Source: Flavobacteriales bacterium
Lineage (GTDB): Bacteria; Bacteroidota; Bacteroidia; Palsa-965
Length of the DNA: 64,000 nt
Reading direction: 5' to 3'
NCBI GenBank assembly: GCA_002737665.1
Contig: NSIF01000003.1
Span: 8,334 to 72,333 of the forward strand
The notes under the pieces are model-generated. The model did no database searches. It was not told the DNA's origin and saw nothing but the letters and a program-made list of their open reading frames with translations. Positions 20,410-54,707 of the stretch are shown piece after piece. Position numbers and translations under genes: made by a program. Positions within the stretch are counted from its first letter, which is position 1, and each line of letters begins with the position of its first letter.

Positions 20410-20832
20410 CTAGTTTGTTACTCTTAAAACAGTTCCGTCAAAAATGCAACGAAATTGTCGAAGTGGAATGACCGCTAATCCAGAAATTGGACTTCCGTCA
20501 CTCAATAAAAATTGTGAGTTACAACTCAGGTCCTTTAGAATAATATTATTTGTTGTGTCAACAGCTACAATAGCACTAGGCTCCTCGGGTAAATAAGGGC
20601 ATGTTCTTTCGTATGCAGCGAATTCATTGAATCCCTTTCGGTAAACAATAACGCCACGATTCCCGCCCGCAAAATATTTCCAACCACCAACACTAACAAG
20701 GTTTATGTTTTGTGGTTCATTCACATAAATTATAAGATCCACATAAACATTGGGTACATACTGTCGATTTTTTTTACAATTTGTGAAAAGTAATAAAATG
20801 AAAACAATTATCAGATAGTTACTTTTGTACAT
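20410..20832 (-). CDS. lipoprotein with degenerate Rieske-like domain
   Basis: 140 aa. Lipobox-like LLLFTNC. CPY...x23...CNSQF stands where a Rieske domain has CxH...CxxH. The tail GLAVIPLRQFRCIFDGTVLRVTN resembles the Rieske C-terminal strands. Confidence 0.4.
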   Translation of the reverse strand: MYKSNYLIIVFILLLFTNCKKNRQYVPNVYVDLIIYVNEPQNINLVSVGGWKYFAGGNRGVIVYRKGFNEFAAYERTCPYLPEEPSAIVAVDTTNNIILKDLSCNSQFLLSDGSPISGLAVIPLRQFRCIFDGTVLRVTN

Positions 20833-20844: not shown

Positions 20845-20882
20845 GCGAAGTTTTTCTTCGTCATCAACCTTGTTTAAAATTG

Positions 20883-20890
20883 TAAGTTTG
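20883..20890 (+). promoter_or_regulatory. -7 box TAAGTTTG upstream of 20909-21247
   Basis: Exact TAnnTTTG match, 18 nt upstream of ATG 20909. Confidence 0.4.
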
Positions 20891-20908
20891 TCAAGCAAAT
20901 ATAAGCGC

Positions 20909-21247
20909 ATGAAAACAAGAATTTTATTAATTGGCATTGCTATTCAGTTTCTACCACTTTTTTTAGCTGCACAAACAGATGCTGGTGGAGCTTCAAATAA
21001 AACTGAAAAGTCGGAGGAAGCCAAATCGCCGGACACAAAGTTGGAACGTCAAAAAGCTAAACGTCAGTGGAAGAAAAACAGAAAACAAGAAATGGGTGCT
21101 GCGAAAGCAAAAAAAGAATACAGTAAAAAATATAATACAAAGATGACTCGCAAGAGAATGAAGCGTTCCCAGAAGAAAGCGCTCCAGAACAATGCTCATA
21201 AGCGAGACTTTTTTCTCGTACGGTGGTGGAATAAAATATTCCATTAA
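20909..21247 (+). CDS. small secreted lysine-rich protein, unknown function
   Basis: ATG 20909 gives the signal peptide MKTRILLIGIAIQFLPLFLAAQ. The mature part is highly basic (KAKRQWKKNRKQ..., KKYNTKMTRKRMKRSQKK). Confidence 0.45.
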   Translation: MKTRILLIGIAIQFLPLFLAAQTDAGGASNKTEKSEEAKSPDTKLERQKAKRQWKKNRKQEMGAAKAKKEYSKKYNTKMTRKRMKRSQKKALQNNAHKRDFFLVRWWNKIFH

Positions 21248-21418
21248 TTAGTTTCGATGATGAATTATTGTCTTTTGTAAACCGTTGTTGGTTTTCCGTA
21301 ACATACGTTTTAAGCCATTGTGAATTTTAAGTTAAAAATATTTTGTAATTTGTGTTAAAATCTTTTATATTTACGCATTGAATTGCACTATTTATACATC
21401 ATACGAAATAGAATTATT

Positions 21419-24400
21419 ATGCTTCGAAAAATCTACCTAGTTATTACTATTTTAATGGTAAGCCTGACTCTTGCAACTGCTCAAAGTGGTGGTGCAATTA
21501 AAGGAAAAGTGATTGATAAAGCGACTCGTGAAGGCGTGCCTTTTGCAATCGTCACAGTCTCTATGAATGGTGTAAATGCTGGCGGGGCGCAAACCGACTT
21601 AGATGGCAATTACCAAATCAAACCTCTTAATGCAGGGGTTTATAGTGTTAAGATTCAATATACAGGTTATAAACCCGTTGAGATTGTTGGAGTAATAGTT
21701 TCAGATTTAAAAACAAGTTATCTTACCGGTACAGAAATATCTGCATCAAGTATTACAAATGCTGTTTTTGAGGTTGTAGAATATAAAGAACCACTTATTG
21801 ATCCAGATACAAAGTCAGGCAGTACAATTACTCGTGATGAGTTTATTGCAATGCCATCTAAAAATATTAACTCAGTTGCAGCAACCACAGCAGGTGTTTA
21901 CCAAGCTGATGAAGGTGGCGGACTTAATATGCGTGGTCAGCGTTCTGAAGGTACTGCTTATTTTATTGATGGCCAGAGAGTAATTGGCTCGGCGAATCTT
22001 CCACAGCAATCCATAGAACAAGTAAGTGTTATTACGGGTGGTGTTCCAGCTCAATTTGGAGATGCTACCGGTGGCGTAATTAACATTACAACTCGTGGAC
22101 CACAAAGCGAATATTTTGGTGGTGTAGAGTTAATCAGCTCTGAAATTTTAGATGATTACGGATATAATTTTGTTGGCTTTAGTGCCGGTGGACCAATTTT
22201 GATGAAGCGAGATGCCGTTAAAGGTAATCGTCCTATTCTTGGTTTTATTATTTCTGGAGAGGGCAGCACTGAAAAGGATCCTGACCCGTCAGCAATCGGA
22301 ACATATAAATTAAAAGATGAGAAATTAGCAGAGCTTGAGGTTAGTCCACTTCGCCCTTCCCCAACCGGTACAGGTTTTGTTCGTAATTCTGAATTTGTTC
22401 ATGCAAGCGATTTTGAAAAAATTAAAGCACGACAAAATGTGGCCTCTCGTACATTACGTTTGAATGCGAAAATTGACTTTAAACCAACAGAAAATTTAAA
22501 CATCACCTTTGGCGGATCTGTTGATTATAACTCTCGACACAATTATATTTATGATTATGCGCTATTCAATCCTTCAAACAACCCGCTTAACAATTCTAAT
22601 ACTTGGAGGGTTTATGCTCGCTTAACACAACGTTTTGGTTCGCAGGGAGCAGCAGCTGAAAAGTCTGCCTCAAACTTAAAAAATGCGTTTTATACAATTC
22701 AGGTTGGCTATACAAAAGTGATGTCAACAACACAGGATGATACACATAAAAATAAGTATTTCGATTACGGTCACATAGGAACTTTTAACCAATATAAAAC
22801 ACGGTCATTTATTCCTGGTAGCGTTGTGGTAGCTGGTGACACTTTATTCGGATATGTTCAATCTGCATTTTCAGATTCTGCACTTACGTATACTCCTTCT
22901 TATATAGATATGGATGGCAACACTGTTATTTCTCCAAATCCGCTTGAATCTAACTATACGGATTATGTGTATGCTAATTATAATGGGCAAATTGTGAATG
23001 GTAATGACATCCAATCAAGTTTAGGTCTTCTGAATGGTGACCGTCCATCTAACGTTTATTCTCTTTGGCTAAACACAGGTCGTCAATACCCTTCTTATTT
23101 TATTGATGATAAAACACAATTTCGTGTTTTTACAAGTTTCTCTGCTGATATAAAAGAGCACGCCATTCAGGTAGGATTTGAATTTGAACAACGCTCGGAG
23201 AGGGCATATTCATTGGGAGCAGCTGGACTTTGGACTCGAATGCGTCAACTTGCCAATAATCATTTAACACAATTGGATTTGGAAAATCCGACACAAGTGG
23301 ATTATGGTACTTACGATGCATTTACTTATGAACGTTTCTATGATGCAAGTCAGCAGAAATATTTTGATGCCCAACTTCGTGAGGCTTTAGGTATGCCAGT
23401 TACAAGTACTGATTGGATTGATATTGATGCTTTAGGTCCAGATTTTTACAATTTAGATATGTTTAGTGCTGATGATATGTTGTTGGATGGAAATAATATT
23501 GTTAGTTATAACGGTTACGATCACACAGGAAAGCGCCAAAATGGTGGAGCTTCATTTGACGATTTTTTTACCAAGAAAGATAAAGATGGAAATTTCACAA
23601 GAACTATTCCTGCATTCCAGCCAATTTATATGGCAGGTTACATCCAAGATAAATTTGATTTTAAAGATTTGAAATTTAATGTTGGTCTTCGTATCGATCG
23701 CTTTGATGCGAATCAAAAGGTGTTAAAAGATAAATATCTTTTTTATGAAGCAAAGACTGTAAAGGAAGTAGACAACTTTGTCCACCCTGAAAATATGGGC
23801 GATGACTATGTAGTCTATGTTGATGCGAATCCAAATCCAAATACTATTTTGGGTTATCAGTTTGAAGGAAATTGGTTTGATGCACAAGGAAATGAAATAG
23901 GAGATCCTTCTGTAATTGCACAAGCTTCGGGAACAGGTCAAATCACTCCTTACTTATTAAATCCTTCACAGACAACCATTAGTTCAAAAGCTTTTAAGGA
24001 TTACGAGCCACAGCTAAATTTTATGCCAAGGATAGCTTTCGCTTTTCCTATTTCAGATGAAGCTAATTTTTTCGCACATTATGACGTATTAACACAACGT
24101 CCAACTGATGGTTACCGATTAGATCCTTTACAGTATTATTACATTGCTAACCGTGTTGGATCATTCAATAATAATCCTGCATTGAAACCACAGCGCACAA
24201 CGGATTATGAGCTTGGATTTACACAAACATTAAGTGCTCGTAAGAATGCTGCTATAACAATTTCATCTTTCTACCGTGAGTTCCGCGATATGATTCAAGT
24301 TGTGGCAGTCAATTATGCATACCCAGTTAATTACCTTACTTACGATAACATTGACTTTGGTACTGCAAAAGGCTTTACTGTTGCCTATGACCTTAGACGT

Positions 24401-25102
24401 ACGAATGGTGTTCAATTAACTGCGAGTTACACACTTCAGTTTGCCGATGGCACTGGATCTGGATCTAGCGAAGCTGCTACACTTATTTCTTCAGGTCAAC
24501 CAAATCTTCGTACTACATTGCCTTTGGATTTTGATCAAAGACACGCAATTGTATGTAATGTTGATTACAGATTTGGATCTGGCGCAAATTACCATGGACC
24601 AGTGGTTGGAAATGGATCAACAAAACTTTTTGATAATGTTGGAGCTAATATGGTATTTCGTGCTGGTTCAGGTACACCATATACCCAACAATCCAATGCT
24701 ACGCCTGATGCACAGTTTGGAGTTGCAAGTCGTCCAAATTTAGAGGGATCTGTTAATGGTTCTCGTTTTCCTTGGCAGGTTCGAATGGATTTGAGAATTG
24801 ATAAAGACATTGACCTTCATTGGGGTGGCGATCAAGCAAAAGGTGAAAGTGCAAAGGAAGCAAGCTTGAATATTTACCTTCAGGTTTTAAATGTGTTGAA
24901 CACAAAGAATATTCAAAATGTATATCGTTATACAGGCAATGCCGCTGACGATGGCTATTTGAATGCTTCATCAACTCAAGCATTAATTAATGCACAAAAT
25001 GACCCAAATTCATTTAGAGATTTGTATGCTATAAAAGTAAATAACCCATCAAACTATAGTATTCCGCGAAGAATTCGTCTTGGTGTAATGCTCGACTTTT
25101 AA
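21419..25102 (+). CDS. Oar-like TonB-dependent outer-membrane barrel (carboxypeptidase-regulatory domain + plug + large barrel)
   Basis: ATG 21419 gives the signal peptide MLRKIYLVITILMVSLTLATAQ. IKGKVIDKATREGVPFAIVTV...DGNYQIKPLNAGVYSVKIQYTGYKP; plug-like LNMRGQRSEGTAYFIDGQRV...VITGGVPAQFGDATGGVINITTRGP; C-terminal ...RRIRLGVMLDF. No SusD-like gene is adjacent. Confidence 0.75.
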   Translation: MLRKIYLVITILMVSLTLATAQSGGAIKGKVIDKATREGVPFAIVTVSMNGVNAGGAQTDLDGNYQIKPLNAGVYSVKIQYTGYKPVEIVGVIVSDLKTSYLTGTEISASSITNAVFEVVEYKEPLIDPDTKSGSTITRDEFIAMPSKNINSVAATTAGVYQADEGGGLNMRGQRSEGTAYFIDGQRVIGSANLPQQSIEQVSVITGGVPAQFGDATGGVINITTRGPQSEYFGGVELISSEILDDYGYNFVGFSAGGPILMKRDAVKGNRPILGFIISGEGSTEKDPDPSAIGTYKLKDEKLAELEVSPLRPSPTGTGFVRNSEFVHASDFEKIKARQNVASRTLRLNAKIDFKPTENLNITFGGSVDYNSRHNYIYDYALFNPSNNPLNNSNTWRVYARLTQRFGSQGAAAEKSASNLKNAFYTIQVGYTKVMSTTQDDTHKNKYFDYGHIGTFNQYKTRSFIPGSVVVAGDTLFGYVQSAFSDSALTYTPSYIDMDGNTVISPNPLESNYTDYVYANYNGQIVNGNDIQSSLGLLNGDRPSNVYSLWLNTGRQYPSYFIDDKTQFRVFTSFSADIKEHAIQVGFEFEQRSERAYSLGAAGLWTRMRQLANNHLTQLDLENPTQVDYGTYDAFTYERFYDASQQKYFDAQLREALGMPVTSTDWIDIDALGPDFYNLDMFSADDMLLDGNNIVSYNGYDHTGKRQNGGASFDDFFTKKDKDGNFTRTIPAFQPIYMAGYIQDKFDFKDLKFNVGLRIDRFDANQKVLKDKYLFYEAKTVKEVDNFVHPENMGDDYVVYVDANPNPNTILGYQFEGNWFDAQGNEIGDPSVIAQASGTGQITPYLLNPSQTTISSKAFKDYEPQLNFMPRIAFAFPISDEANFFAHYDVLTQRPTDGYRLDPLQYYYIANRVGSFNNNPALKPQRTTDYELGFTQTLSARKNAAITISSFYREFRDMIQVVAVNYAYPVNYLTYDNIDFGTAKGFTVAYDLRRTNGVQLTASYTLQFADGTGSGSSEAATLISSGQPNLRTTLPLDFDQRHAIVCNVDYRFGSGANYHGPVVGNGSTKLFDNVGANMVFRAGSGTPYTQQSNATPDAQFGVASRPNLEGSVNGSRFPWQVRMDLRIDKDIDLHWGGDQAKGESAKEASLNIYLQVLNVLNTKNIQNVYRYTGNAADDGYLNASSTQALINAQNDPNSFRDLYAIKVNNPSNYSIPRRIRLGVMLDF

Positions 25103-25156
25103 GCTAAAAAAATTATTGCTCCAATACAGACAAGAAAAAAATTAAATTGAATTAAA

Positions 25157-28100
25157 ATGAAAATAAATCGCCAAATCAGGTCCCTATCAATTGCAGTTTT
25201 TATCTGCTTTGCTACCACAGCAATCGGAAGAGAAAACGGTGCCACAGGCCAGCGTCAATCAAATACAAGTTCTAGTAGATGGAATGGACAGGATCAATTA
25301 GCAGCCTCTTGTACGCCAGCATCAGCTAAAACTGACTTAGATATTAATAATGTACGTACCACGATAATGACTGGTGGCGATATGTGGTGGAATTTAAGCA
25401 CTGCTAAATATGAAATTCCAAAAGATGGTGGAGCGCATTCCATTTTTGCTGGGGCACTTTGGATTGGTGGTCTTGATGCTGGTGGACAATTGAAAGTAGC
25501 TGGAATGACATATCGCCAAACAGGAAATGACTTTTGGCCAGGCCCCTTAGATACCACTACAGTTTCTATTGATGGAACAACTTGTGCTGCATTTGATAAA
25601 CATTGGAAAATTACCAGAAAACAAGTTGAAGATTTTGGACTTTATTTAGCTGGCACACCACCAGCAGGGTATTCTGTTCCATTAGTAATTCAAAATTGGC
25701 CAGGAAATGGTGATGCAAGCTTAGGACAAGGTCATTATTTAGCTCCTTTTGTTGATGCTGATGGTGACGGATTTTATTCCTGGACTTCAGGTGATTATCC
25801 AGCGTATGATATTACTGGTTCATTAGGATGTTCAAAATTTCAATTATTTGGTGACCAATGTTTATGGTGGGTTTTTAACGATAAAGGGAATATCCATTCT
25901 GAAACTGGTGCTGCTGCAATTGGTTTAGAAATTCATGCTCAGGCATTTGCTTTTTCTACCAATGATGAAATAAATAATATGTCATTTTATCAGTATAAAA
26001 TTATTAACCGCTCTACTGTATCAATGACCAACACCTATTTTGGACAATGGACAGATGCTGATCTTGGCTCTTATGACGATGATTATGTTGGATGTGATGT
26101 TGCTCGTGGACTTGGATATACTTTTAATGGAGATGCAAATGACGGAGCAAGCGCATTGCCAACTGTAGGTACTTATGGTGCAAATCCTCCTGCAGTAGGA
26201 TTAGATTTCTTTGAAGGGCCTTTAGCTGACGCAGGCGATGCAATAGATAATGATCACGACGGCACCACAGATGAAATTGGTGAACAAATTATCATGTCTA
26301 AATTTGTTTATTATAACAACGATTTTAGTGTATTGGGTAATCCAGAGAACGCGACTCATTTCTATAATTATCTTTCTGGGTTTTGGAAAGATGGTTCACC
26401 TTTTACTTATGGAGGAAATGCATACGGAGGAACGACATTATGTGATTATATGTTCCCTGGCGATACAGATCCATTTGGTATTGGTTGTAACAATGTGCCA
26501 CAAGCAGACTGGAGTGAAGAGCTTGAAGGAAACACTCCGTTTGACCGTCGTATGATGCAGTCTGCAGGGCCTTTTACTTTACAGCCCGGTGCTGTAAATT
26601 ACGTTACAGTCGGTGCTGTTTGGGCACGTGCTGCAAATGGTGGACCTAGTGCATCAGTAGCGCTTATGCGTATAACTGATGATAAAGCACAAAATTTATT
26701 TGACAATTGCTTCAGAACTTTGGATGGTCCTGACGCGCCAGACATTACCATTCAAGAATTGGATAAAGAATTATTGCTTTACCTTACAAATAAACCAAAT
26801 TCGAATAATTATTTGGAGCGCTACAATGCTGGCGACCCTTCCATTACTTATTCTTCACTCTCTCCTTTATTAGCAGGTATTGATACAACTTATAGTTTTG
26901 AAGGTTATCAAATTTTCCAATTAAAAGATGAAACGGTTACCACTTCGGATCTATATAATTTGGATAAAGCTCGTTTGGTTGAACAATGTGATATAAGAAA
27001 CGGTATTGGAAGTTTAGTTAACCGCGATTTCGATCAAGTACTAAATGCAGATGTACCCAAAGACATGACCATTACTGCAAATGATGATGGCATTTCTCAC
27101 TCTTTCAGTATTAAAGATGATTTATTTGCAGCAGGTGATCGTCGCTTAATCAATCATAAAACATATTACTTTTTAGCTTTATCTTATTCGCATAATAGTT
27201 ATTTGTCGTATGCTGATGTTTCTTTTGATCTCCTTAATCCTATTGCTCCTTCTAATATTGGACAGAAAAAACCCTATTTAGCAGGTCGTCGTAATGTGAA
27301 ATCATATTCTGGAATACCCCATATTACATCCCCTGAGGCCGGTGGTACAAATCAAGCATCTTCTTATGGAAATGGTCCTAAATTGACACGTCTTGAAGGT
27401 TCTGGAAATGGTACAAATGTTCTGGATTTGACAGATGCTTCTATAAATGCCATTCTTAATGCGCCTCCAGTTGTGTTTACAAATAATGGTTCTGCTCAGA
27501 GCACTGGTGATTGGAATGGAACAGCTCGCGTAAATAACATTGAATATCAGAATGGAAAAGGTCCTGTTAATATTAAAGTGATTGACCCATTAAATGTTGT
27601 GGATGGAACTTATACAATTGAAATTACAAATAACACAACTAATACTTCAATTATTCCAAGTACAGCGAAGTGGACTTTGCATCAATTAACTCCTACTGCT
27701 CAATCTTGGAGTTCGGATACCACAATAACCATTTTTAGTAATTTTTCTAACGAACAAATTATTCCTGAACTTGGTTTATCAGTAACTTTTGCATCAGTTC
27801 AAAATGTTGGTACCAATAATAATCCAGACAAAAACAGTTATTTGGAATCTTCTATGGTATTTACAGAACCGACTAAAGATTGGTTGACGGGTGTTGTAGA
27901 TGATGACAGTCAATCTGAATCAAATTGGATTCGTTCTGGTACAACAACTGGAACCGGAGGATGCGCACCTTCTTTCAATGATCGATTTACTGGTGCAACA
28001 CCTCTTGATGCGGAAGCTGATTATGAGAAAGTTGTAAATGGAATTTGGGGCCCATACCGTCTTTGTGCCGACAATCTAAATCCTGCATTAACTACAATTT

Positions 28101-29311
28101 GTTATAGTGCTGGCCCTGCTTATTACCAAACCACCACAATGGTTCAAAACAAAATGGATAATATTTCCAACATTGATGTGGTGTTTACGAATGACAAGTC
28201 GAAATGGACTCGTGTACCTGTAATTGAAGTTGGATCAAACAGTTCACAAACTCAAAACGGTACAGGAACATTCTTACTTAGAAGTGGTGCATCGGTTGAT
28301 AAAAATGGATCATCCACAAATCTTGGTGGTGGCATTACTAATTCTGATTTCATTAGTGCAACAGGCATGAGTTGGTTTCCTGGTTATGCGATCAACGTTA
28401 CTACTGGTGAGCGATTAAATATGGCTTTTGCTGAGAATTCATCGCTTGTTGCCGACCGCGGTCGCGATATGCTTTGGAATCCTACATCAAATGAGCGTTC
28501 AACATTCGGAGATCCATTGTTTGGTGGCCAACATTATATTTATATTTTCGGTCACAATGGAAATGCTCGCTATATACCAAATTATGCAATTCCGTATTTA
28601 CAGAACGAATTGAAGGATGTTCCAGCTTACGATTATGGACGAATGATTATGAAGATCATGAAGCCAGCCAGTACTTATACATCAGCAAATGTGCAAACGG
28701 AACGCACTGAGATGTGGCGAGATGCAATGTGGGTAAGTATTCCAAAACTTGCCGATGATTACTCAACATGGAATTTCAATTACAGCGGCAATCCCTTGCC
28801 AACAGATGTAAAAGTTAGGTTACGTGTTGCTAAGCCATACAAAAGGGCGCTCACAGAAATTCTTGGAAATGCTACTTACCCATGGATTCCTACTGATACT
28901 GTTTTCGCTGCACAGAATGGAAATAATCCAATGTATTCTTTTAACACAGCTGATTTAAAAGTTGGTATTAACGATAACTTATTCGCAAAAAGTGCACTTG
29001 ATTTAATTAATGTCGTTCCAAATCCGTATTACGCTTATTCCAGTTATGAAAAAAATCAGTTAGATAATAGAGTTAAATTCACTAATCTTCCTGAAAAGTG
29101 TACAATTCGTATTTACACAGTAAGTGGACTTTTGATTAGAAAAATTACCAAAGATTCACCCATAACTTCAGTGGATTGGGATTTGAAAAACCAAGCTGGT
29201 ATTCCTATCGCAAGTGGACTTTATATTGTACACGTTGACGTACCAGATGTCGGTGAAAAAATTCTTAAGTTTTTTGGTATTCTTCGACCTGTTGACTTAG
29301 ATGCGTATTAA
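25157..29311 (+). CDS. 1384-aa secreted protein of unknown function with atypical CTD-like C-terminal beta-sandwich
   Basis: Long uninterrupted ORF, 54 nt after the barrel gene. Signal peptide MKINRQIRSLSIAVFICFATTAIG. Asp-rich DNDHDGTTDE. No catalytic motif recognised. Confidence 0.9.
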   Translation: MKINRQIRSLSIAVFICFATTAIGRENGATGQRQSNTSSSRWNGQDQLAASCTPASAKTDLDINNVRTTIMTGGDMWWNLSTAKYEIPKDGGAHSIFAGALWIGGLDAGGQLKVAGMTYRQTGNDFWPGPLDTTTVSIDGTTCAAFDKHWKITRKQVEDFGLYLAGTPPAGYSVPLVIQNWPGNGDASLGQGHYLAPFVDADGDGFYSWTSGDYPAYDITGSLGCSKFQLFGDQCLWWVFNDKGNIHSETGAAAIGLEIHAQAFAFSTNDEINNMSFYQYKIINRSTVSMTNTYFGQWTDADLGSYDDDYVGCDVARGLGYTFNGDANDGASALPTVGTYGANPPAVGLDFFEGPLADAGDAIDNDHDGTTDEIGEQIIMSKFVYYNNDFSVLGNPENATHFYNYLSGFWKDGSPFTYGGNAYGGTTLCDYMFPGDTDPFGIGCNNVPQADWSEELEGNTPFDRRMMQSAGPFTLQPGAVNYVTVGAVWARAANGGPSASVALMRITDDKAQNLFDNCFRTLDGPDAPDITIQELDKELLLYLTNKPNSNNYLERYNAGDPSITYSSLSPLLAGIDTTYSFEGYQIFQLKDETVTTSDLYNLDKARLVEQCDIRNGIGSLVNRDFDQVLNADVPKDMTITANDDGISHSFSIKDDLFAAGDRRLINHKTYYFLALSYSHNSYLSYADVSFDLLNPIAPSNIGQKKPYLAGRRNVKSYSGIPHITSPEAGGTNQASSYGNGPKLTRLEGSGNGTNVLDLTDASINAILNAPPVVFTNNGSAQSTGDWNGTARVNNIEYQNGKGPVNIKVIDPLNVVDGTYTIEITNNTTNTSIIPSTAKWTLHQLTPTAQSWSSDTTITIFSNFSNEQIIPELGLSVTFASVQNVGTNNNPDKNSYLESSMVFTEPTKDWLTGVVDDDSQSESNWIRSGTTTGTGGCAPSFNDRFTGATPLDAEADYEKVVNGIWGPYRLCADNLNPALTTICYSAGPAYYQTTTMVQNKMDNISNIDVVFTNDKSKWTRVPVIEVGSNSSQTQNGTGTFLLRSGASVDKNGSSTNLGGGITNSDFISATGMSWFPGYAINVTTGERLNMAFAENSSLVADRGRDMLWNPTSNERSTFGDPLFGGQHYIYIFGHNGNARYIPNYAIPYLQNELKDVPAYDYGRMIMKIMKPASTYTSANVQTERTEMWRDAMWVSIPKLADDYSTWNFNYSGNPLPTDVKVRLRVAKPYKRALTEILGNATYPWIPTDTVFAAQNGNNPMYSFNTADLKVGINDNLFAKSALDLINVVPNPYYAYSSYEKNQLDNRVKFTNLPEKCTIRIYTVSGLLIRKITKDSPITSVDWDLKNQAGIPIASGLYIVHVDVPDVGEKILKFFGILRPVDLDAY
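29003..29308 (+). other. CTD-like / FlgD-Ig-like terminal domain of the 1384-aa protein
   Basis: LINVVPNPYYAYSSYEKNQLDNRVKFTNLPEKCTIRIYTVSGLLIRKI...VDWDLKNQAGIPIASGLYIVHVDV...KILKFFGILRPVDLDAY. It resembles a T9SS sorting domain, but it has an insertion after PNP and an extra C-terminal tail. Confidence 0.45.
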
Positions 29312-29359
29312 ACTTTATTAATTGTTGTGAAATTTTCTAATTGATTTGAAAGAAAAATT

Positions 29360-30433
29360 ATGAAAGCAAAAAATAAAATAAAAATAACAATGCTCAGCGC
29401 AGGAATACTTCTTGTGATTGCATTGCCTTGTATTGCTGGAAATAAAGATCGTGCTGGACAAGCAGGAGCAACGGAGTTATTAATAAATCCGTTTGCAAGA
29501 AGTTCTGGCTGGGGTAGTGCAAATACAGCAGGAGTGCATGGCCTTGAGGCAATGTATTTAAATGTTGGTGGTATGGCATTTACCAAAAACACAGAATTAT
29601 TATTTTGCCATACAAATTGGCTCGGTGGAGCAGGCATTGGTATTAATTCATTTGGGTTTACACAGCGTGTAGGTGCTACTGGCGCTATTGGACTTGGCAT
29701 TATGTCAATGGATTTTGGTGATATTGATATTACCACCACAGATCTTCCAGAAGGCGGAATTGGAACTTTTCACCCTACTTATAGCAACATAGCACTTTCA
29801 TTTGCGAAAGGATTTTCACAATCAATTTATGGTGGATTGGTAGTTAAAGGAATTTCCGAATCAATTGCTGATGTATCAGCTCGCGGTGTAGCATTGGATG
29901 CAGGAATTCAATATGTGACAGGTAAATTCGAGCATATTAAGTTTGGAATTTCTCTTCGAAACGTTGGACCGCGAATGAGGTATACTGGTGATGGACTTGG
30001 ATTTAAAGGTGTAGCTCCTTCTGGAGTTTATGCAATGACTGTTAACCAACGTTCGGCTGATTTTGATTTGCCAACATTAATTAATATTGGAGGAACGTAT
30101 GATTTTTATTTCTCAAAAGATTCTTTGTCAATGAAAACCAATCGCATTACAGCCGCAGGAAATTTCACTTCTAACTCTTTTTCTAAGGATGAATTCCGCG
30201 CAGGATTAGAATATGCATGGAAATCGATGTTCATGGTTCGTGCTGGATTTATTTATGAGGATGGAATAACCAATGAGGAAGAGCGTACAACTGCATTTAC
30301 TGGTCCAAGTTGCGGTGCTTCAATTGAACTTCCTTTTGGAAAGCGTGGATCAACCTTTGCGATTGATTATTCGTATCGTGCCACAAACCCATTTAATGGT
30401 GTTCATAGTTTCGGAGCCCGAATTAATCTTTAG
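29360..30433 (+). CDS. PorV/PorQ-family (FadL-like) outer-membrane beta-barrel protein
   Basis: 357 aa. Signal peptide ...ALPCIAG. N-terminal family motif AGATELLINPFARSSGWGSANTAGVHGLEAMYLNVGGMAF. Ends ...HSFGARINL. Lies 48 nt after the 1384-aa gene. Confidence 0.55.
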   Translation: MKAKNKIKITMLSAGILLVIALPCIAGNKDRAGQAGATELLINPFARSSGWGSANTAGVHGLEAMYLNVGGMAFTKNTELLFCHTNWLGGAGIGINSFGFTQRVGATGAIGLGIMSMDFGDIDITTTDLPEGGIGTFHPTYSNIALSFAKGFSQSIYGGLVVKGISESIADVSARGVALDAGIQYVTGKFEHIKFGISLRNVGPRMRYTGDGLGFKGVAPSGVYAMTVNQRSADFDLPTLINIGGTYDFYFSKDSLSMKTNRITAAGNFTSNSFSKDEFRAGLEYAWKSMFMVRAGFIYEDGITNEEERTTAFTGPSCGASIELPFGKRGSTFAIDYSYRATNPFNGVHSFGARINL

Positions 30434-30473
30434 TCCTGTTCTTAAAAACCGCTAAATTTAGTATCTTTGGTTT

Positions 30474-30516
30474 AAGGAGAATCCCGCTTCAGTTTTACTG
30501 ATGCGGGATTCTCCTT
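30474..30516 (+). terminator. strong hairpin closing the three-gene operon (no U-tract)
   Basis: Perfect 14-bp stem aaggagaatcccgc / gcgggattctcctt with a 15-nt loop, 40 nt after the stop. It is followed by cuauuucuauuc rather than a U-run. Confidence 0.5.
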
Positions 30517-30556: not shown

Positions 30557-31030
30557 ATGTCAGAAATAATTTATTTTACCGAGTCAGGTCTTATCAAAAT
30601 AAAGGAGGAACTACATTTCTTAAAAACGAAAGAAAGAACTAGTATATCTCGCCAAATTGCAGAAGCAAGGGATAAAGGAGATCTATCAGAGAATGCCGAG
30701 TACGATGCCGCTAAGGAAGCGCAGGGCCTATTAGAAGCAAAGATTTCGAAGATTCAAGGTATGGTGAATAATGCTCGAATTGTTGATGAAACGAATCTTG
30801 ATATTGATAAGGTTTTAATCCTTTGCAAGGTCACAATTAAAAATTTGAAATCAGGACAGCAAATGACCTATACGCTTGTTCCTGAAACGGAGGCAGACCT
30901 TAAGACGTTTAAACTTTCTGTAAATTCTCCTATTTCAAAAGGTCTTTTGGGTAAAAAAGTAGGGGATATTGCTAATGTTACTGTTCCTGCTGGTGCTTTA
31001 CAGTTCGAGATTATTGAAATTTCAAGATAA
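30557..31030 (+). CDS. greA: transcription elongation factor GreA
   Basis: 157 aa. ...LKTKERTSISRQIAEARDKGDLSENAEYDAAKEAQ..., with a C-terminal FKBP-like domain. Confidence 0.95.
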   Translation: MSEIIYFTESGLIKIKEELHFLKTKERTSISRQIAEARDKGDLSENAEYDAAKEAQGLLEAKISKIQGMVNNARIVDETNLDIDKVLILCKVTIKNLKSGQQMTYTLVPETEADLKTFKLSVNSPISKGLLGKKVGDIANVTVPAGALQFEIIEISR

Positions 31031-31434
31031 TGGCAAGTATTTTTTCTAAAATTATCAATGGTGAAATTCCCTGTTATAAAATTGCTGAGACAGAAAAATG
31101 CATTGCTTTTTTAGACGTTTTTCCATTAGTCGAAGGCCATGTTTTGGTTGTTCCTAAAAAAGAAGTTGATTATATATTTGATTTAGAAGAATCAGATTTT
31201 ACGGAGTTACAGCTTTTTTCTAAAAAAGTTGCGCGGGCAATTAAGCACGTAATTAGCTGTAAACGAATTGGAGTTGCTGTCATTGGATTAGAAGTTCCAC
31301 ATGCACACATTCATCTTGTTCCAATGAACAATACAGATGACTTGAATTTTACAAAGTCCAAATTAAAACCTAGTAAAGAGCAATTGGAGGAAGTGGCGAG
31401 GAAAATTTCAGAAGCTTTTTTAATTAATAATTAA
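31030..31434 (+). CDS. HIT-family (histidine triad) protein
   Basis: 134 aa. IFSKIINGEIPCYKI..., with the triad VPHAHIHLVP. Its start overlaps the greA stop (TAATG). Confidence 0.9.
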   Translation: MASIFSKIINGEIPCYKIAETEKCIAFLDVFPLVEGHVLVVPKKEVDYIFDLEESDFTELQLFSKKVARAIKHVISCKRIGVAVIGLEVPHAHIHLVPMNNTDDLNFTKSKLKPSKEQLEEVARKISEAFLINN

Positions 31435-37871: not shown

Positions 37872-37935
37872 TTTTAAAACGCATGCATTTATTGGAATAT
37901 TGTGTGGGAGCGGTTTTTTATATGTATTCAGAGAT

Positions 37936-37943
37936 TATATTTG
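37936..37943 (+). promoter_or_regulatory. -7 box TATATTTG upstream of the giant adhesin gene
   Basis: Exact TAnnTTTG match, 17 nt upstream of ATG 37961. Confidence 0.45.
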
Positions 37944-37960
37944 TATTAAATATAAATTTT

Positions 37961-40900
37961 ATGATAAAATTTAATGCTACTTTCCTTTACCTATTCTTTT
38001 CTTCAACTATAGCGCTAGCTCAATTACCAGTGATACGCAGCACGTTTACTGGGCCTTATACTCCTATTAATATGCCAGCAGCAACCTTATCTACTGCATC
38101 GGGTGATGATGATGTGCAAAGTGCAATTCCATTAGGATTTACATTTAATTATTTAGGAATAAATTATACAACTATTGGCGTAAGTACAAATGGCGTTGCT
38201 TCTTTTAGCGCTGCAATGTCTACCTCAGGAACGAATAATAATTTATATGTTGGAGCAGCACCAAATTTAAGTCTCGCTCCTTGGTGGGATAATATTTGGT
38301 CTGATACTATATTATACCAATTGCAGGGCCCACCTGCCAATCGGACTTTTACTATTCAGTGGACGAATTCACTTTCTTATAATAATACAGCAACACAGCT
38401 GTTGAATTTTCAGATTATTTTGCACGAAACATCTGATGTAATTGAGTTTAGTTATGGTAATATGGTACCAGGAATCGCAGCAGCAAATGAGTCTGCTTCT
38501 ATTGGCATTGAAAGCTTAGTTGGTGGTGCCGGTGATTATCTTGATGCTATTACAGGGTCTCCATTTACGAGTAACGGAATGCTAAATTCGTCAACGCAAT
38601 GGCCTTCGCATAATTTCAGATTTACGCCAGGCACTGCTGCTGCTCTTGTAGGTGGAACTTATACAGTTGGCCTGACAGGAAACTATTATAGTTTGAGTGA
38701 AGCAATTGCTGACATTAACCATAGCGGAATTGCTGGGCCGATAATTCTTTCGCTCATAGATAATAATTATGATGTTTCTGCTGCAAATGGCGATAATTAT
38801 TTTCCAATGTTAATTGGACCAGTAAATGGCTCGTCTTCCTTTAATACAATTACCATTTCCTCTTTTGTAGGTACATCAATAATTACTTCTGAGGGAACCA
38901 ACAATGGTAATTGTGGAAATGCTGCTGCAAATAATATCATTAGTAATATAAATGAACCTATCCTTGCACTTGTAGGAGCTAGTTATATTAATTTACAAAA
39001 TATTGAATTAAATTGTTCTAATACCGGTATTGTCGATCGAGGTTTATTTGTAATTAATTCATCTGCAATTGTGGGTTCTCAAAATAATTTATTCACCGGT
39101 ATTACTGTTGCGCTCAATAGAGGGAATGCAACGAGTATGGGTATTGAACAACGTGCAATAACAACTCCAACAGCTATTGGTGGAGCAAATTCAACTAATG
39201 GATATTTCAATCTCGATATTTCCAATGTATACAATGGTATGTATCTCAACGGAAATGCTGCGTTTCCAGATTTGAATAGTGTCATAGGTAATACTTCAGC
39301 GACTCAATTTAATATGATTGGAGCGGCAACTATAGATGATATTGGAAATGGCAATACAACCACTTATGGTATTCGTGCCAATAATCAAAATGGTGTTTCA
39401 ATTTATAATAATGAAGTTCGAAATGTTTCACAAAATGGTAATTCAACAGCAGAGGGAATTATTTTAGATGCTGCTGTTGGTTCCAATAATGTATATACGA
39501 ATAAAGTTCATGCAATAAATTATAGAGGTTTAACGAATACGGGTAACATTACTGGCATTCGTGCTAATTTGGCTGCGGTAGGTGCAAATTCTGTAAATAT
39601 TTTCAATAATTTTATTTATGATATTGGTTCTTCCTACACTGGAGCAGCTTCAGCAATGCGTGCAACTAAGGGGATTTATGTTCAATCTATTGGTGGTGGC
39701 ACGAATGCAAGTACTATTAATGTAGATTTTAATTCGGTGAGAATGGATAATTCTAATTCCCTAACTCTTTCAGGAACATGTTTTGAAATTGGTGCAACGA
39801 ATGGTCCCGTACTTAATTTACGCAATAATATATTTTCCAATTTCACGCAAGCGCAAACTGGAATCGCGAGACACTTTGCAATGGCAAGCACATCGGCCAC
39901 TGCAGTAGGGAATACAGGGTCAATATCTGATTACAATAATTTTTATATTGATAATACTACAAATGGTTTTGTAGGTATCGGTGCTACAACCACATTCGCA
40001 TCACTTCCTAATTGGCAAACCGCTGTATCACAAGATTTCAATTCTTTAGGTGTTGATCCGTCATTCAATTCTTCTAACGACTTGCATTCCTCTGCCCTTG
40101 CATTAAACGGTACAGGTAACATGACTGGAATTACGTGGGTAACAAATGATATTGATAACCAACAGCGTTCTATTACACCAGATATTGGCGCCGATGAATT
40201 TGTACCATTGTTACTTGATGCAGGTGTAACTACTTTAGTTGCGCCATTAACTACTGGTTGTTATACAGCTTTAGAACAAGTTACGGTTACTTTGAAAAAT
40301 TTCGCAACTGTCCCACTTGATTTTACAATCGATCCTGTAACCATTGTTGTAAATGTGACCGGATCATTAACGCAAACACTTTCATTTACAATCAATACGA
40401 ATATTCTGAATGCCAATTTACCGCTATCATCAGATAGTTCCATTGTTGTACCTATAGGATTAATTAGCATGACAGTTAGCGGAATTTATACTTTCGATGC
40501 ATATAGTATTTTAGGTGGAGATGGAAATTCATTTAATAATTCAATGTCTACTGTGAATATTAATTTTTCACCTGGAACTGCGACAGCTTCACCAGTTTCT
40601 GTTTGTGCAGGAGCTTCTACTACGCTAACTTTAACTGGAGCGGGGAATGGTGGAACTATTCAATGGCAAAGTAGTACAGATGGTGGTATTACCTGGAACA
40701 ATGAAACTGGTATTGGCTCTACTACTACTTCCTATGTTGTAATTCCAACTGCTAATACATTGTATCAGGTATTATTTTGTGGTGTATTAATTTCCAATGT
40801 GGATACTGTAAATTATTATCAATTGTCGGTCCCAGCAGTAATTGGTGATACGATTTGTGGCTCTGGTGTAGCAAATTTAAATGCAACCGGCAACGGAATC

Positions 40901-43099
40901 ATTCAGTGGTATGCCTTACCTACAGGAGGTAATACGCTTGCAACAGGAGGCGTTTATTCACCTTCAATTTCTGCTACTACAACTTTTTATGTTACCAATA
41001 CTTCAGGAAATATAGTTCAAAGTGTTGGCTTATATGACAACTCTGCAGGTGGAGGAATGTCGGGATCTGCAAATAGTTTAATCTTTGATGTGTTTCAGTA
41101 TGCTACACTTAATGGTGTATATGTATATCCAGCTGCTGCTGGAAATATTGTGATTGACCTCATTGATAGTTCGAATGTTGTACTAAATACTGTTACAGTG
41201 GCAGTAGTATTAGCTGATGTTAACCAGCGTACATTTATTCCACTTAACTTTAGTTTGTCACCTGCAGTTGGAATGCGTCTTGTTCGTAATGCCACTTCAG
41301 TTAATCTTTGGAGAAACAACGTTGGAGTAAATTATCCTTATTCACTACCTGGTGTACTTTCAATCACAGCGAGCACTGCAGGAAATGGATTTTATTATTT
41401 CTTTTACGATTGGCAGATTAATTATGGTTGCGAAAGTCTACGTGTTCCCGTAAATGCTGTTGTATTAGCAGCACCTGCAATTTCAATTACTGCAGCATCT
41501 GTTTTTTTATGTGCAGGCGACAGTACAACAATAACTGTTACGAGTACAAATTCTGGGTATTCTTATTTATGGTCTCCAGCAGGAACTCTGAATACAAATT
41601 CTGGCTCATCTGTTATCGCAACACCGAATGCAGCAATTGTCTATACTGTAATTGGAAATGATTCTATTAATGGATGTCAGATTACAGATAGTATTTTGAT
41701 TTCAGTAACCAGTATACCACCAATTATTATTTCAGTAGCCGATTCCGTTATTTGCAATGGCAGTTCTGATACTTTAATTTTTAATTATCCAACGCAAAGT
41801 GTGGGACTGTATGATAATTCTGCAGGTGGTGCTCAGTCTGGTTCTGGTAATAATTTAATTTTTGATGTGTTGGGTAATTGTACTTTGGCTGGAGTTTATA
41901 TTTATCCAGGAGCCGCAGGAAATGTAATTATTGAATTGCAGGATAATACAAATGCTGTTATTAATTCAGCCACTTTTAATGCCACAACGGCGCAGATAAA
42001 CCAGCGTGTTTATGTTCCACTTAATTTTTCACTTACTCCAGGTACTGGAATGCAACTCGTTCGTAACGGAACATCTATAAATCTTTGGAGAAATAATGTC
42101 GGTGTAAATTATCCTTACACCTTACCTGGTTTAATTTCAATTACAACAAGTACTGCTGGAAATGGTTTTTATTATTTCTTTTATGATTGGCAAATAATGA
42201 CTTCAAACGCATTAACTTATGTTTGGTCATCTATTCCTACTGGTTATACTAGCACAAATGATACTGCAATTGTAACTCCAAGTATTAGTACTCAATATAT
42301 TTTAACTGTAACTGATTCCATTTCAGGTTGTACTGCTCAATTTAATAGGAACATTGATATTGCTACGCCAATTGTTGCAATTATTGGAGGGAATCAATCA
42401 ATTTGTTTAGGCGACACTGCAACGCTAATTGCTGGATTCAGTGGTGGTGATGGAAATACATATTACGTTTGGAGTAATAATCTTGGAACAAATGATTCTG
42501 TCAACGTGTTTCCATCAGTAAATACAAATTATTCTTTAATTGCAATTGATGGATGTGGATCACTTTCAAATGATACGGCTACAGTGATTGTAAATACAGT
42601 TCCACCAGTTGTTGGTTTTACATATTCTGTTACTGGCTTATTGACTTTTACTTTTTCAGACGCTTCAGTAAATGCCACATCATGGTTTTGGGATTTTGGA
42701 GATTTGACAACTTCGACATTGCAAAATCCAACACATGTTTATGCCGCGATAGGTACTTATACTGTTTTATTGATTGCGTCAAATGGTTGTGGGTCTGATA
42801 CACTCATACAAGTAATACTTGTGGATGGTATTGAAAATAATTTCCTTACTTCTGGTGTAAGTATTTTCCCTAATCCTGCGAAAAATCAATTTAATGTGTC
42901 ATTTAATAATGACAAATCTTCATTTGTAACGATTCAATTTTTCAATCTTCAGGGAAAGTTGATTCAGGAAAAACAAATCAGTAATGTTAAAGCCGGTACA
43001 ACTGTTCCAATGAATGTCGAAGGATATCCAAATGGTATGTATTTGCTGAAACTTATTGGTGAAAACGAGTCTGCTTTTTTTAAAATTATAGTTCAGTAA
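37961..43099 (+). CDS. giant T9SS-secreted adhesin-like protein (beta-helix repeats, Ig-like domains, duplicated 134-aa module, PKD domain, CTD)
   Basis: The ORF track starts at 37883. ATG 37961 gives the signal peptide MIKFNATFLYLFFSSTIALAQ. Parallel-beta-helix-like N/G-rich repeats (NNEVRNVSQNGN..., NIFNNFIYDIG...). Ig-like domains with C..G.S..L...IQWQSSTDGGITW. PKD domain WFWDFGDLTTSTLQNPTHVYAAIGTYTVLLIASNGCG. T9SS CTD at the end. Confidence 0.9.
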   Translation: MIKFNATFLYLFFSSTIALAQLPVIRSTFTGPYTPINMPAATLSTASGDDDVQSAIPLGFTFNYLGINYTTIGVSTNGVASFSAAMSTSGTNNNLYVGAAPNLSLAPWWDNIWSDTILYQLQGPPANRTFTIQWTNSLSYNNTATQLLNFQIILHETSDVIEFSYGNMVPGIAAANESASIGIESLVGGAGDYLDAITGSPFTSNGMLNSSTQWPSHNFRFTPGTAAALVGGTYTVGLTGNYYSLSEAIADINHSGIAGPIILSLIDNNYDVSAANGDNYFPMLIGPVNGSSSFNTITISSFVGTSIITSEGTNNGNCGNAAANNIISNINEPILALVGASYINLQNIELNCSNTGIVDRGLFVINSSAIVGSQNNLFTGITVALNRGNATSMGIEQRAITTPTAIGGANSTNGYFNLDISNVYNGMYLNGNAAFPDLNSVIGNTSATQFNMIGAATIDDIGNGNTTTYGIRANNQNGVSIYNNEVRNVSQNGNSTAEGIILDAAVGSNNVYTNKVHAINYRGLTNTGNITGIRANLAAVGANSVNIFNNFIYDIGSSYTGAASAMRATKGIYVQSIGGGTNASTINVDFNSVRMDNSNSLTLSGTCFEIGATNGPVLNLRNNIFSNFTQAQTGIARHFAMASTSATAVGNTGSISDYNNFYIDNTTNGFVGIGATTTFASLPNWQTAVSQDFNSLGVDPSFNSSNDLHSSALALNGTGNMTGITWVTNDIDNQQRSITPDIGADEFVPLLLDAGVTTLVAPLTTGCYTALEQVTVTLKNFATVPLDFTIDPVTIVVNVTGSLTQTLSFTINTNILNANLPLSSDSSIVVPIGLISMTVSGIYTFDAYSILGGDGNSFNNSMSTVNINFSPGTATASPVSVCAGASTTLTLTGAGNGGTIQWQSSTDGGITWNNETGIGSTTTSYVVIPTANTLYQVLFCGVLISNVDTVNYYQLSVPAVIGDTICGSGVANLNATGNGIIQWYALPTGGNTLATGGVYSPSISATTTFYVTNTSGNIVQSVGLYDNSAGGGMSGSANSLIFDVFQYATLNGVYVYPAAAGNIVIDLIDSSNVVLNTVTVAVVLADVNQRTFIPLNFSLSPAVGMRLVRNATSVNLWRNNVGVNYPYSLPGVLSITASTAGNGFYYFFYDWQINYGCESLRVPVNAVVLAAPAISITAASVFLCAGDSTTITVTSTNSGYSYLWSPAGTLNTNSGSSVIATPNAAIVYTVIGNDSINGCQITDSILISVTSIPPIIISVADSVICNGSSDTLIFNYPTQSVGLYDNSAGGAQSGSGNNLIFDVLGNCTLAGVYIYPGAAGNVIIELQDNTNAVINSATFNATTAQINQRVYVPLNFSLTPGTGMQLVRNGTSINLWRNNVGVNYPYTLPGLISITTSTAGNGFYYFFYDWQIMTSNALTYVWSSIPTGYTSTNDTAIVTPSISTQYILTVTDSISGCTAQFNRNIDIATPIVAIIGGNQSICLGDTATLIAGFSGGDGNTYYVWSNNLGTNDSVNVFPSVNTNYSLIAIDGCGSLSNDTATVIVNTVPPVVGFTYSVTGLLTFTFSDASVNATSWFWDFGDLTTSTLQNPTHVYAAIGTYTVLLIASNGCGSDTLIQVILVDGIENNFLTSGVSIFPNPAKNQFNVSFNNDKSSFVTIQFFNLQGKLIQEKQISNVKAGTTVPMNVEGYPNGMYLLKLIGENESAFFKIIVQ
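41018..41419 (+). repeat. 134-aa module copy 1 inside the adhesin
   Basis: QSVGLYDNSAGGGMSGSANSLIFDV...NLWRNNVGVNYPYSLPGVLSITASTAGNGFYYFFYDWQI. Confidence 0.85.
41795..42196 (+). repeat. 134-aa module copy 2 inside the adhesin
   Basis: QSVGLYDNSAGGAQSGSGNNLIFDV...NLWRNNVGVNYPYTLPGLISITTSTAGNGFYYFFYDWQI. Same length as copy 1 with no gaps. 93 of 134 residues are identical by hand alignment. Confidence 0.85.
42860..43096 (+). other. T9SS C-terminal sorting domain
   Basis: SIFPNPAKNQFNVSF...VTIQFFNLQGKLIQEKQI...PNGMYLLKLIGENESAFFKIIVQ. Confidence 0.85.
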
Positions 43100-54677: not shown

Positions 54678-54707
54678 TAGTCTATTGTTAACGATTGGCA
54701 TAAAAAT

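Follow-up and report, generated by a model that had tools for sequence, protein, structure and literature searches.

Three adjacent genes in a 64,000-nucleotide stretch of a Flavobacteriales bacterium (assembly GCA_002737665.1, contig NSIF01000003.1, forward-strand positions 8,334 to 72,333; the whole stretch is called the window, and its own numbering is used) encode a predicted TonB-dependent transporter (gene 1), a giant secreted protein of an uncharacterised family (gene 2) and an outer-membrane barrel of the PorV/PorQ family (gene 3). At roughly even odds (a probability of about 0.5), the three products would together make up a single module of the outer membrane, which would rely on the resident type IX secretion system (T9SS) for its assembly and in which the T9SS-delivered gene 2 protein sits on gene 3 beside gene 1. 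The trio had been singled out in an earlier reading made from the sequence alone, without database searches; the observation made in that sequence-only reading was confirmed in full, and its interpretation was borne out in part.

Organization and conservation of the trio

Gene 1 (21419-25102, forward strand) starts at an ATG, with an in-frame TTG further upstream at 21383 in the same open reading frame (ORF), and codes for a transporter of 1227 aa with an N-terminal carboxypeptidase-regulatory-like extension. Gene 2 (25157-29311, forward strand) codes for a secreted protein of 1384 aa (~150 kDa), and gene 3 (29360-30433, forward strand) for a 357-aa barrel of the 14-strand type. The ORF calls agree with the earlier description of three same-strand genes separated by 54 nt (gene 1/gene 2) and 48 nt (gene 2/gene 3). 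The leader or promoter region of gene 1, previously put at 170 non-coding nt, was measured as 171 nt (21248..21418, forward strand; no ORF lies between 21247 and 21419), and 123 nt of non-coding DNA separate gene 3 from the downstream greA gene. The perfect 14-bp hairpin that closes the trio was found at 30474..30516 (forward strand), together with a 5-bp inner stem; this terminator-like structure has a folding energy (dG) of -32.4 kcal/mol, a value that 200 shuffled sequences all failed to reach (z = -7.8). Shuffled sequence gave sigma-70-like matches at least as often as the leader did, and such scans do not cover the promoters of Bacteroidota.

A scan of one genome per species returned at least 598 gene-2 loci, and the neighbourhood analysis was carried out on the best 80 of them, where synteny was determined by tblastn with the three window proteins. 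The genes were adjacent and in the order gene 1-gene 2-gene 3 in about 72 of these 80 closest species-representative loci, gene 1 lying immediately 5′ of gene 2 in about 73 and gene 3 immediately 3′ in about 70. Measured from aligned end to aligned end, neighbouring trio genes were a median of about 52 nt apart. The 80 loci come from Bacteroidia metagenome-assembled genomes (MAGs) of the Flavobacteriales (Cryomorphaceae, Salibacteraceae, Parvicellaceae, Weeksellaceae), the Bacteroidales (Lentimicrobiaceae) and Chitinophaga, and one 'Omnitrophica' bin besides. All three genes are present on the contig from this last bin (L052, JBLMZZ010000017.1, labelled 'Omnitrophica WOR_2'), where the gene 3 homologue is 61% identical to that of the window; the contig is probably mis-binned Bacteroidota DNA. 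Gene 2 was solitary, with unrelated neighbours, in six loci (L003, L006, L007, L015, L020 and L077); since L004 and L007 come from one MAG, the gene 2 of L007 is a paralogue. Locus L037 (121-14122) is rearranged into gene 1, a split gene 2 (316 + 1096 aa), gene 3, greA and a second, intact gene 2, the split being a possible frameshift or assembly error.

Co-variation of evolutionary rates was determined from pairwise distance matrices of the 59 loci holding all five genes (the trio, greA and the HIT-family gene that follows it). Raw mirror-tree correlations are confounded by protein length, so random subsamples of 100 columns were used instead to equalise noise. Gene 1 and the body of gene 2 correlated at r = 0.68, as compared with 0.72-0.73 in the self-controls (gene 1 vs gene 1, gene 2 vs gene 2). 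The values were 0.56-0.59 for gene 3 vs gene 1 or gene 2, and 0.53 for the C-terminal domain (CTD) of gene 2 vs gene 3. On the other hand, any trio gene vs greA or HIT gave 0.39-0.47, and greA vs HIT gave 0.43. A common rate history unites the trio and leaves out the adjacent housekeeping genes, a result compatible with a complex. The conserved gene order and the rate co-variation above the level of greA and HIT both speak for the earlier view of the trio as one module.

The C-terminal domain of gene 2

The last ~110 residues of gene 2 (CTD, 28979..29308, forward strand) show a mean identity of 59% over 24 orthologues. Each of the 24 family CTDs gave a match to PorZ model NF052228 over its CTD part (best E 1.9e-11), to the corresponding part of the PorU model and, at E <= 0.1, to model TIGR04183 (best E 1.6e-8). 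Bit scores of the gene-2 CTD were 32.9 for PorZ, 21.1 for PorU and 21 for TIGR04183; on this last model the window protein reached 17.9-21 bits, under the cutoff of 23. Pfam PF18962 was matched by one of 16 gene-2 members, and TIGR04131, the type B CTD model, was not among the matches of the gene-2 CTD. Three canonical CTDs taken as controls (two from the window, one from L020) scored 38-51 bits with TIGR04183 and did not match the PorZ model. An identity of gene 2 with PorZ itself was rejected: the match to NF052228 is confined to model positions 671-748 of 757, that is, to its CTD part, and its 32.9 bits are far under the equivalog cutoff of 260.

A profile search of the Protein Data Bank (PDB) with the gene-2 CTD returned PorZ first and PorU next. 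The AlphaFold2 model of the domain (aa 1240-1384; mean predicted local distance difference test, pLDDT, 87) is predominantly beta-stranded, and its top Foldseek match was PorZ (5m11; E 2.2e-6, 100 columns, root-mean-square deviation, rmsd, 3.2 A, 28% identity). Further fold matches were FlgD, the CTDs of RemZ and NucA bound in SprA-PorV structures (TMt 0.70-0.73) and PorU. Profiles and predicted fold thus confirm the earlier assignment of this end to a T9SS-CTD/FlgD-Ig sandwich with an insertion after PNP and an extra tail, and indicate that it is a genuine T9SS type A CTD fold, apparently nearer to the CTDs of PorZ and PorU than to an ordinary sorting signal.

Two segments set this domain apart. 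An insertion, VVPNPYYAYSxYE (29012..29068, forward strand), is invariant in 24 sequences, and a tail (FFGILRPVDLDAY; 29270..29308, forward strand; pattern RPxDLxx[F/Y]) follows the conserved CTD lysine K1371. In the same 24 sequences K1371 is invariant, as are the K, R and P of the tail, and the final residue is always aromatic. A near-C-terminal Lys is almost invariant in type A CTDs (PMC10994853); in gene 2 it is followed by 13 residues, vs 4 in a canonical CTD of the window. The canonical CTDs of the window have neither the insertion nor the tail, and across the 80 loci the tail motif was confined to ORFs of the gene-2 family. For all their invariance, insertion and tail are the parts modelled with the least confidence (block pLDDT of 60 for the PNPYY segment), which makes the PNPYYAYSxYE insertion a candidate partner-binding loop, as invariant segments of low confidence may become ordered on a partner.

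PorU and PorZ are T9SS substrates whose CTD is not removed and which are anchored on PorV and PorQ, and it has been suggested that cognate PorV-like barrels shield CTDs from cleavage (PMC10202324, PMC12365241). By analogy, the CTD of gene 2 is probably retained uncleaved. The domain does differ from canonical CTDs, as had been noticed from the sequence; its likeness to those of PorZ and PorU refines that view, and points to stable docking on a barrel instead of a mere variant of the export signal.

Gene 3 is related to PorV and PorQ

Gene 3 scored 134.6 bits on the PorV/PorQ family model NF033709 (cutoff 90) and remained below the equivalog cutoffs of PorQ (60.7 vs 220 bits), PorV (52 vs 250) and PorV2 (46.5 vs 325). 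In profile searches it matched PorV of Flavobacterium johnsoniae (6h3i_F) with an E value of 1.8e-15, compared with 0.24 for TodX. On these scores, gene 3 is assigned to a distinct branch of the PorV/PorQ family and is not an orthologue of PorV, PorQ or PorV2. The initial assignment to a PorV/PorQ/FadL type is thereby narrowed: the protein groups with PorV, and a grouping with FadL-type channels, which had been named as a finding that would speak against the module, was not observed. By the same pair of E values gene 3 is not closer to FadL/TodX than to PorV, and identity with BamG was rejected, since the profile matched PorV and no chain of the BAM complex. A second family member, the PorV2 barrel at 1433-2524 (reverse strand; NF052325, 484.7 bits, cutoff 325), is encoded in the window and shares 27% identity with gene 3 across 169 aa.

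Gene 1 has the features of a TonB-dependent transporter

Pfam models placed a CarboxypepD_reg domain at aa 27-100 of gene 1 and a Plug domain at aa 133-220, and matched the TonB barrel weakly; the protein also has a signal peptide and ends in ...RLGVMLDF. Among 22 orthologues, CarboxypepD_reg and Plug were found in 22 and the barrel model in 12. A profile of 22 sequences run against the PDB matched the plug domains of CirA, PirA and PfeA (colicin I and enterobactin receptors), and its N-terminal extension also matched the SusC homologue 9hfj. The segment FEVVEY...PLID (21767..21802, forward strand; family consensus VEVVxYxVPLID) lies between the N-terminal extension and the plug and, because of this position, is a putative TonB box; P125 and L126 are invariant in the 22 orthologues, whose consensus also contains the classical plug motifs. 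By its domains and motifs, gene 1 is predicted to be a canonical TonB-dependent transporter. All the parts listed in the sequence-only reading (signal peptide, carboxypeptidase-regulatory-like domain, plug, barrel and terminal LGVMLDF) were recovered, the barrel with a weak match.

No SusC/RagA model, and no other specific NCBIfam family, was found among the NCBIfam hits of gene 1 at E <= 0.1. Its two neighbours, gene 2 and a small ORF that has no family, matched no SusD family in Pfam or NCBIfam scans, as expected from the earlier remark that a SusD-like partner is missing. The label 'Oar-like' given to gene 1 in that reading holds for the order of its domains alone, since only the generic CarboxypepD_reg, Plug and TonB-barrel models were matched.

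The body of gene 2

The family to which gene 2 belongs is very large. A word-indexed search gave at least 7554 homologues at E <= 1e-3, named 'hypothetical' or 'T9SS C-terminal target domain-containing protein', and the family comprises 7562 representatives of 50%-identity clusters, 2634 of them at E <= 1e-30, with several paralogues per genome. Look-ups of the clusters likewise yielded no name other than 'hypothetical'. The body matched no Pfam domain in 16 members, NCBIfam gave no match outside the CTD, and no relative of the body was found in the PDB with either a single sequence or a 16-sequence profile. In the 16-sequence alignment the mean column identity is 60%.

The protein starts with a Sec-type signal peptide (25157..25228, forward strand), assigned by reading the sequences without a predictor, after which come a low-complexity linker and Cys52, an invariant residue. 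All 80 homologues have the same arrangement: a hydrophobic signal peptide whose end is of the A-x-E/A-R-E type, a linker of 20-30 aa, an invariant Cys and the motif DLDINNVR. A lipobox was found in none of the 80, and the candidate identity as a lipoprotein, prompted by a conserved 'LAASC', was rejected, the Cys lying ~25 residues past a normal signal peptide in all homologues. The body is rich in invariant Asp residues. Besides the DNDHDGTTDE stretch reported previously (26246..26275, forward strand; aa 364-373), a motif scan detected a second DxDxDG calcium-binding-like motif, DADGDG (25754..25771, forward strand; aa 200-205), with a conserved consensus DxDGDG. Around the DNDHDGTTDE motif, D364, N365, D372 and E376 are invariant in the 16-sequence alignment. 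Length and signal peptide were as first described, and so was the absence of a recognisable catalytic motif, the motif scan having found neither HExxH nor GxSxG.

The AlphaFold2 model of aa 48-1247, built on a 101-sequence alignment (pLDDT 89.8, predicted template modelling score, pTM, 0.77), is mostly beta with few helices, and portrays gene 2 as one compact multi-domain body, unlike a fibrous adhesin. Foldseek against the PDB returned only weak matches, to beta-supersandwich enzymes (glycosidases and phosphorylases of GH116, GH94 and GH15 type), with E values of ~1e-5 but TM <= 0.23 and rmsd of 10-15 A. A glycosidase assignment was rejected, as the model is too poor in helices for an (alpha/alpha)6 catalytic domain. 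The search of BFVD viral structures with the body gave nothing meaningful. Checks by profile and fold thus placed gene 2 in no known enzyme or adhesin family: Pfam, NCBIfam and the PDB profile gave none, and Foldseek these weak matches only.

T9SS components and other genes in the window

The window also encodes PorT/SprT, a core T9SS and gliding component (53943-54701, reverse strand; NF052311, 195 bits, cutoff 125), which adjoins a menaquinone methyltransferase gene (54708-55454). Two further giant proteins, of 1738 aa (37883-43099, forward strand) and 1324 aa (48313-52287, reverse strand), bear the canonical type A CTDs used above, and F510_1955-like glycosylhydrolase repeats are present in the second as well. 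Of the T9SS core, gldKLMN and sprA lie outside the 64-kb window. Since PorT/SprT and the canonical-CTD giants are encoded here, the source organism has at least this T9SS core gene and uses canonical CTD cargo.

Upstream of gene 1, a Lys/Arg-rich ORF of 125 aa with a signal-peptide-like start (20870-21247, forward strand) is kept in four loci only; locus L081 has an ORF of 115 aa in the matching position, and whether the window ORF is a real gene is uncertain. Further upstream, an ORF of 140 aa on the opposite strand (20410-20832, reverse strand) has an N-terminus that reads as a lipoprotein signal and matched no Pfam or NCBIfam family. It lies near the trio in 41 of the 80 loci, and in both the window and L081 it sits 5′ of gene 1 on the opposite strand. 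Downstream, greA and the HIT-family gene (30557-31434, forward strand) follow gene 3, both parted from the trio in the window by the strong hairpin. The neighbourhood formed by the trio, greA and HIT is unusually stable across MAGs labelled Flavobacteriales, Bacteroidales and Chitinophaga. Finally, a 143-aa antisense ORF over the start of gene 3 (29308-29739, reverse strand), with 'homologues' in 20 loci, is most likely not a gene in itself but the shadow that conserved gene 3 casts on the opposite strand.

A possible route of assembly

From these observations we infer T9SS-dependent export of gene 2, retention of its CTD, docking on gene 3, association with gene 1 and the direction of transport. 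Gene 2 would cross the inner membrane via Sec, and the T9SS translocon would recognise its type A-fold CTD and move the protein over the outer membrane. The PorU sortase cuts the CTD of ordinary cargo; that of gene 2, being of the PorZ/PorU kind, would probably be kept. Gene 2 would then be docked non-covalently on gene 3 through the CTD, probably by means of the PNPYYAYSxYE loop and the RPxDLxx[F/Y] tail, an arrangement that would mirror PorZ on PorQ and PorU on PorV. T9SS export of gene 2 together with its pairing with gene 3 is the part of this scheme that we hold to be rather probable.

At the surface, the 150-kDa body with its calcium-binding-like motifs would stand beside gene 1 and could capture or process a ligand that gene 1 imports. 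By analogy, ligand capture or processing for TonB-dependent import would be the most economical role for gene 2, and the outcome would be an equivalent of the SusC/SusD or BtuB/BtuG pair that depends neither on SusD nor on a lipoprotein. A role of the trio in import is put forward tentatively, with the odds somewhat against it. It is doubtful that the trio represents a new class of uptake machine, with a T9SS-delivered 150-kDa lid or capture subunit held by an uncleaved PorZ-type CTD on a dedicated PorV-family barrel, in a two-barrel, three-protein complex linking type IX secretion to TonB import.

Alternative explanations

Several observations weigh against a T9SS-assembled module with an uptake role. 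The same-strand order takes in the downstream greA and HIT genes in 67 of the 80 loci and, because synteny reaches these genes, part of the conserved order may be an inherited neighbourhood and not operon logic; upstream synteny is less frequent, and involves the small lipoprotein ORF and ahcY (32 of 80 loci). Distant gene-2 paralogues (35-41% identity) occur alone or in tandem pairs with no adjacent barrels, so adjacency to genes 1 and 3 is not obligatory across the gene-2 family. Two such pairs (L082, 8001-16403, and L083, 3668-12137), whose members are 69% and 55% identical within the pair and 35-41% identical to the window protein, keep the CTD insertion and tail, and neither a transporter gene nor a PorV-like gene adjoins them. 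The rate co-variation could reflect a regime shared by envelope proteins, not contact. Gene 2 is unusually conserved, whereas surface capture proteins are usually variable; its body has no recognisable binding or catalytic fold in the model, so no ligand can be proposed; and no Rfam element or riboswitch, and hence no hint of a nutrient, was found upstream of gene 1. The notion in the sequence-only reading that the giant protein has its own barrels applies to the closest loci and does not extend family-wide. Likewise, a usual lack of synteny between gene-2 homologues and the barrels, which that reading had named as the finding that would speak against it, is seen among the remoter paralogues and not in the subfamily of the window gene.

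The extended synteny and the paralogues without barrels are what one would expect if there were no joint machine, with gene 2 an ordinary T9SS enzyme or adhesin that has a cleaved CTD and the two barrels mere neighbours in an ancient conserved block; the NCBI name of the homologues, simply 'T9SS C-terminal target domain-containing protein', also fits. However, the three genes are tightly spaced and a strong terminator stands before greA, the CTD is atypical (under the TIGR04183 cutoff, PorZ-like, with invariant insertion and tail), and genes 1 and 2 co-vary almost as one protein, unlike greA and HIT. In addition, the placing of a PorV-family barrel gene beside the gene for a CTD protein has its counterpart in the cognate pairs SprB/SprF and PG1035/PorP (PMC9143113). 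We consider this explanation unlikely, though it survives better than the two that follow.

The trio could instead be an accessory of the T9SS or of cell-surface biogenesis, in which genes 2 and 3 would be a PorZ/PorQ-like pair delivering or processing a surface glycolipid or other envelope component and gene 1 would be structural, like PorF (PG0534). PG0534, a TonB-dependent-receptor-like barrel of Porphyromonas gingivalis, is listed as an essential T9SS component with no role assigned (PMC5445135). The gene-2 CTD is nearest to that of PorZ, gene 3 is about equally near to PorQ and PorV (60.7 vs 52 bits), and the trio lies among housekeeping genes, with a conservation that approaches that of greA and HIT (median identities of 43-54% vs 58-63%). 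Nevertheless, outside the CTD, to which the NF052228 match is restricted, gene 2 is not similar to PorZ, gene 3 is far under the PorQ equivalog cutoff, and gene 1 matched no NCBIfam model of a T9SS component while keeping the canonical plug motifs and TonB-box-like segment typical of active importers. An accessory role is accordingly given a low probability, slightly below that given to the absence of a joint machine.

Self-contained secretion or display independent of the T9SS, an option of the sequence-only reading in which gene 2 would be exported by an Oar-like gene 1 or translocated by a gene 3 reserved for it, could draw on the domain order of gene 1 (CarboxypepD_reg, plug and large barrel), on the joint conservation of the three genes and on Myxococcus Oar, which is reportedly needed for export of PopC, but it is very improbable, and less likely than use of the resident T9SS, given that the CTD, T9SS type A in its fold, can be superposed on those bound inside SprA-PorV, that PorT and other T9SS cargo with canonical CTDs are encoded in the window, that no family-specific model ties gene 1 to Oar, and that a 14-strand barrel of the FadL/PorV type is too small for a folded 150-kDa protein.

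Relation to known systems

The closest parallels to a T9SS-assembled module are PorZ-PorQ and PorU-PorV of P. gingivalis, in which a surface protein exported via Sec and the T9SS (a route that would also apply to gene 2) is paired with a barrel of the PorV/PorQ family; the gene-2 CTD is nearest to PorZ, then to PorU, in both sequence and fold. PorZ is reported to be a surface beta-propeller protein (PMC5445135), whereas the gene 2 passenger is a 1250-aa body of unassigned fold. Gene 3 differs from PorQ and PorV in being an orthologue of neither, and its relation to the PorV2 of the window is one of common family membership at low identity. Unlike PorZ and PorU, gene 2 carries an additional invariant insertion in its CTD, ends in a longer tail and has several paralogues per genome, and a TonB-dependent transporter is encoded with genes 2 and 3.

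In the type B CTD systems SprB-SprF and PG1035-PorP, the cargo gene also adjoins the gene for its own barrel of the FadL/PorV superfamily, and adjacent PorP/SprF-like barrels are thought to collect the cargo and to anchor it via the uncleaved CTD (PMC9143113). The trio departs from these systems in that its CTD is of type A, gene 3 is of the PorV/PorQ and not the PorP/SprF family, there is no PorE-like gene and a transporter gene is present. The trio shares with SusC/SusD and BtuB/BtuG the joint encoding of a large extracellular partner and a large TonB-dependent barrel whose N-terminal extension is carboxypeptidase-regulatory-like. The N-terminal extension of gene 1 also matches that of a SusC homologue, and gene 1 co-varies strongly in rate with gene 2. 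Gene 1 lacks the NCBIfam SusC/RagA signature, however, and gene 2, which has no lipobox and matched no SusD or BtuG family in Pfam and NCBIfam scans, would reach the surface by the T9SS and be held by a separate barrel. With Oar of Myxococcus xanthus, gene 1 shares the architecture of N-terminal carboxypeptidase-regulatory-like domain, plug and oversized barrel, at the level of generic models; it differs in that its neighbour, gene 2, bears a T9SS signal, and to our knowledge myxobacteria have no T9SS.

The literature searched for the trio, for PorV- and PorQ-like barrels, for PorZ homologues and for complexes of T9SS proteins with transporters contained no description of such a system, in line with the earlier statement that no characterised system of this composition was known. 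Since every part belongs to a known superfamily, the trio is not a system of a new category; the same literature describes neither this combination of parts, nor the family of the 1250-aa passenger, nor the CTD subtype.

Implications

The gene-2 family is very large and strongly conserved but lacks a Pfam domain, a solved relative and any literature; it represents a considerable gap in the envelope biology of Bacteroidota. If the proposed assembly is correct, the trio would provide another instance in which T9SS cargo is anchored on a cognate barrel via an uncleaved CTD, beside PorZ-PorQ, PorU-PorV and the type B CTD/PorP systems. The distinction between retained and cleaved type A CTDs is an open question in the T9SS literature (PMC10202324), and the PNPYYAYSxYE motif together with the RPxDLxx[F/Y] tail would then be a sequence signature separating the two. 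It would also follow that the surface partners of TonB-dependent transporters in this phylum are not confined to lipoproteins but can also arrive by type IX secretion. The carrier lineages, among them Cryomorphaceae, Lentimicrobiaceae and further uncultured Bacteroidia, were sampled in metagenomes of marine, freshwater and other environments, and for this reason the ligand of such a module could matter ecologically.

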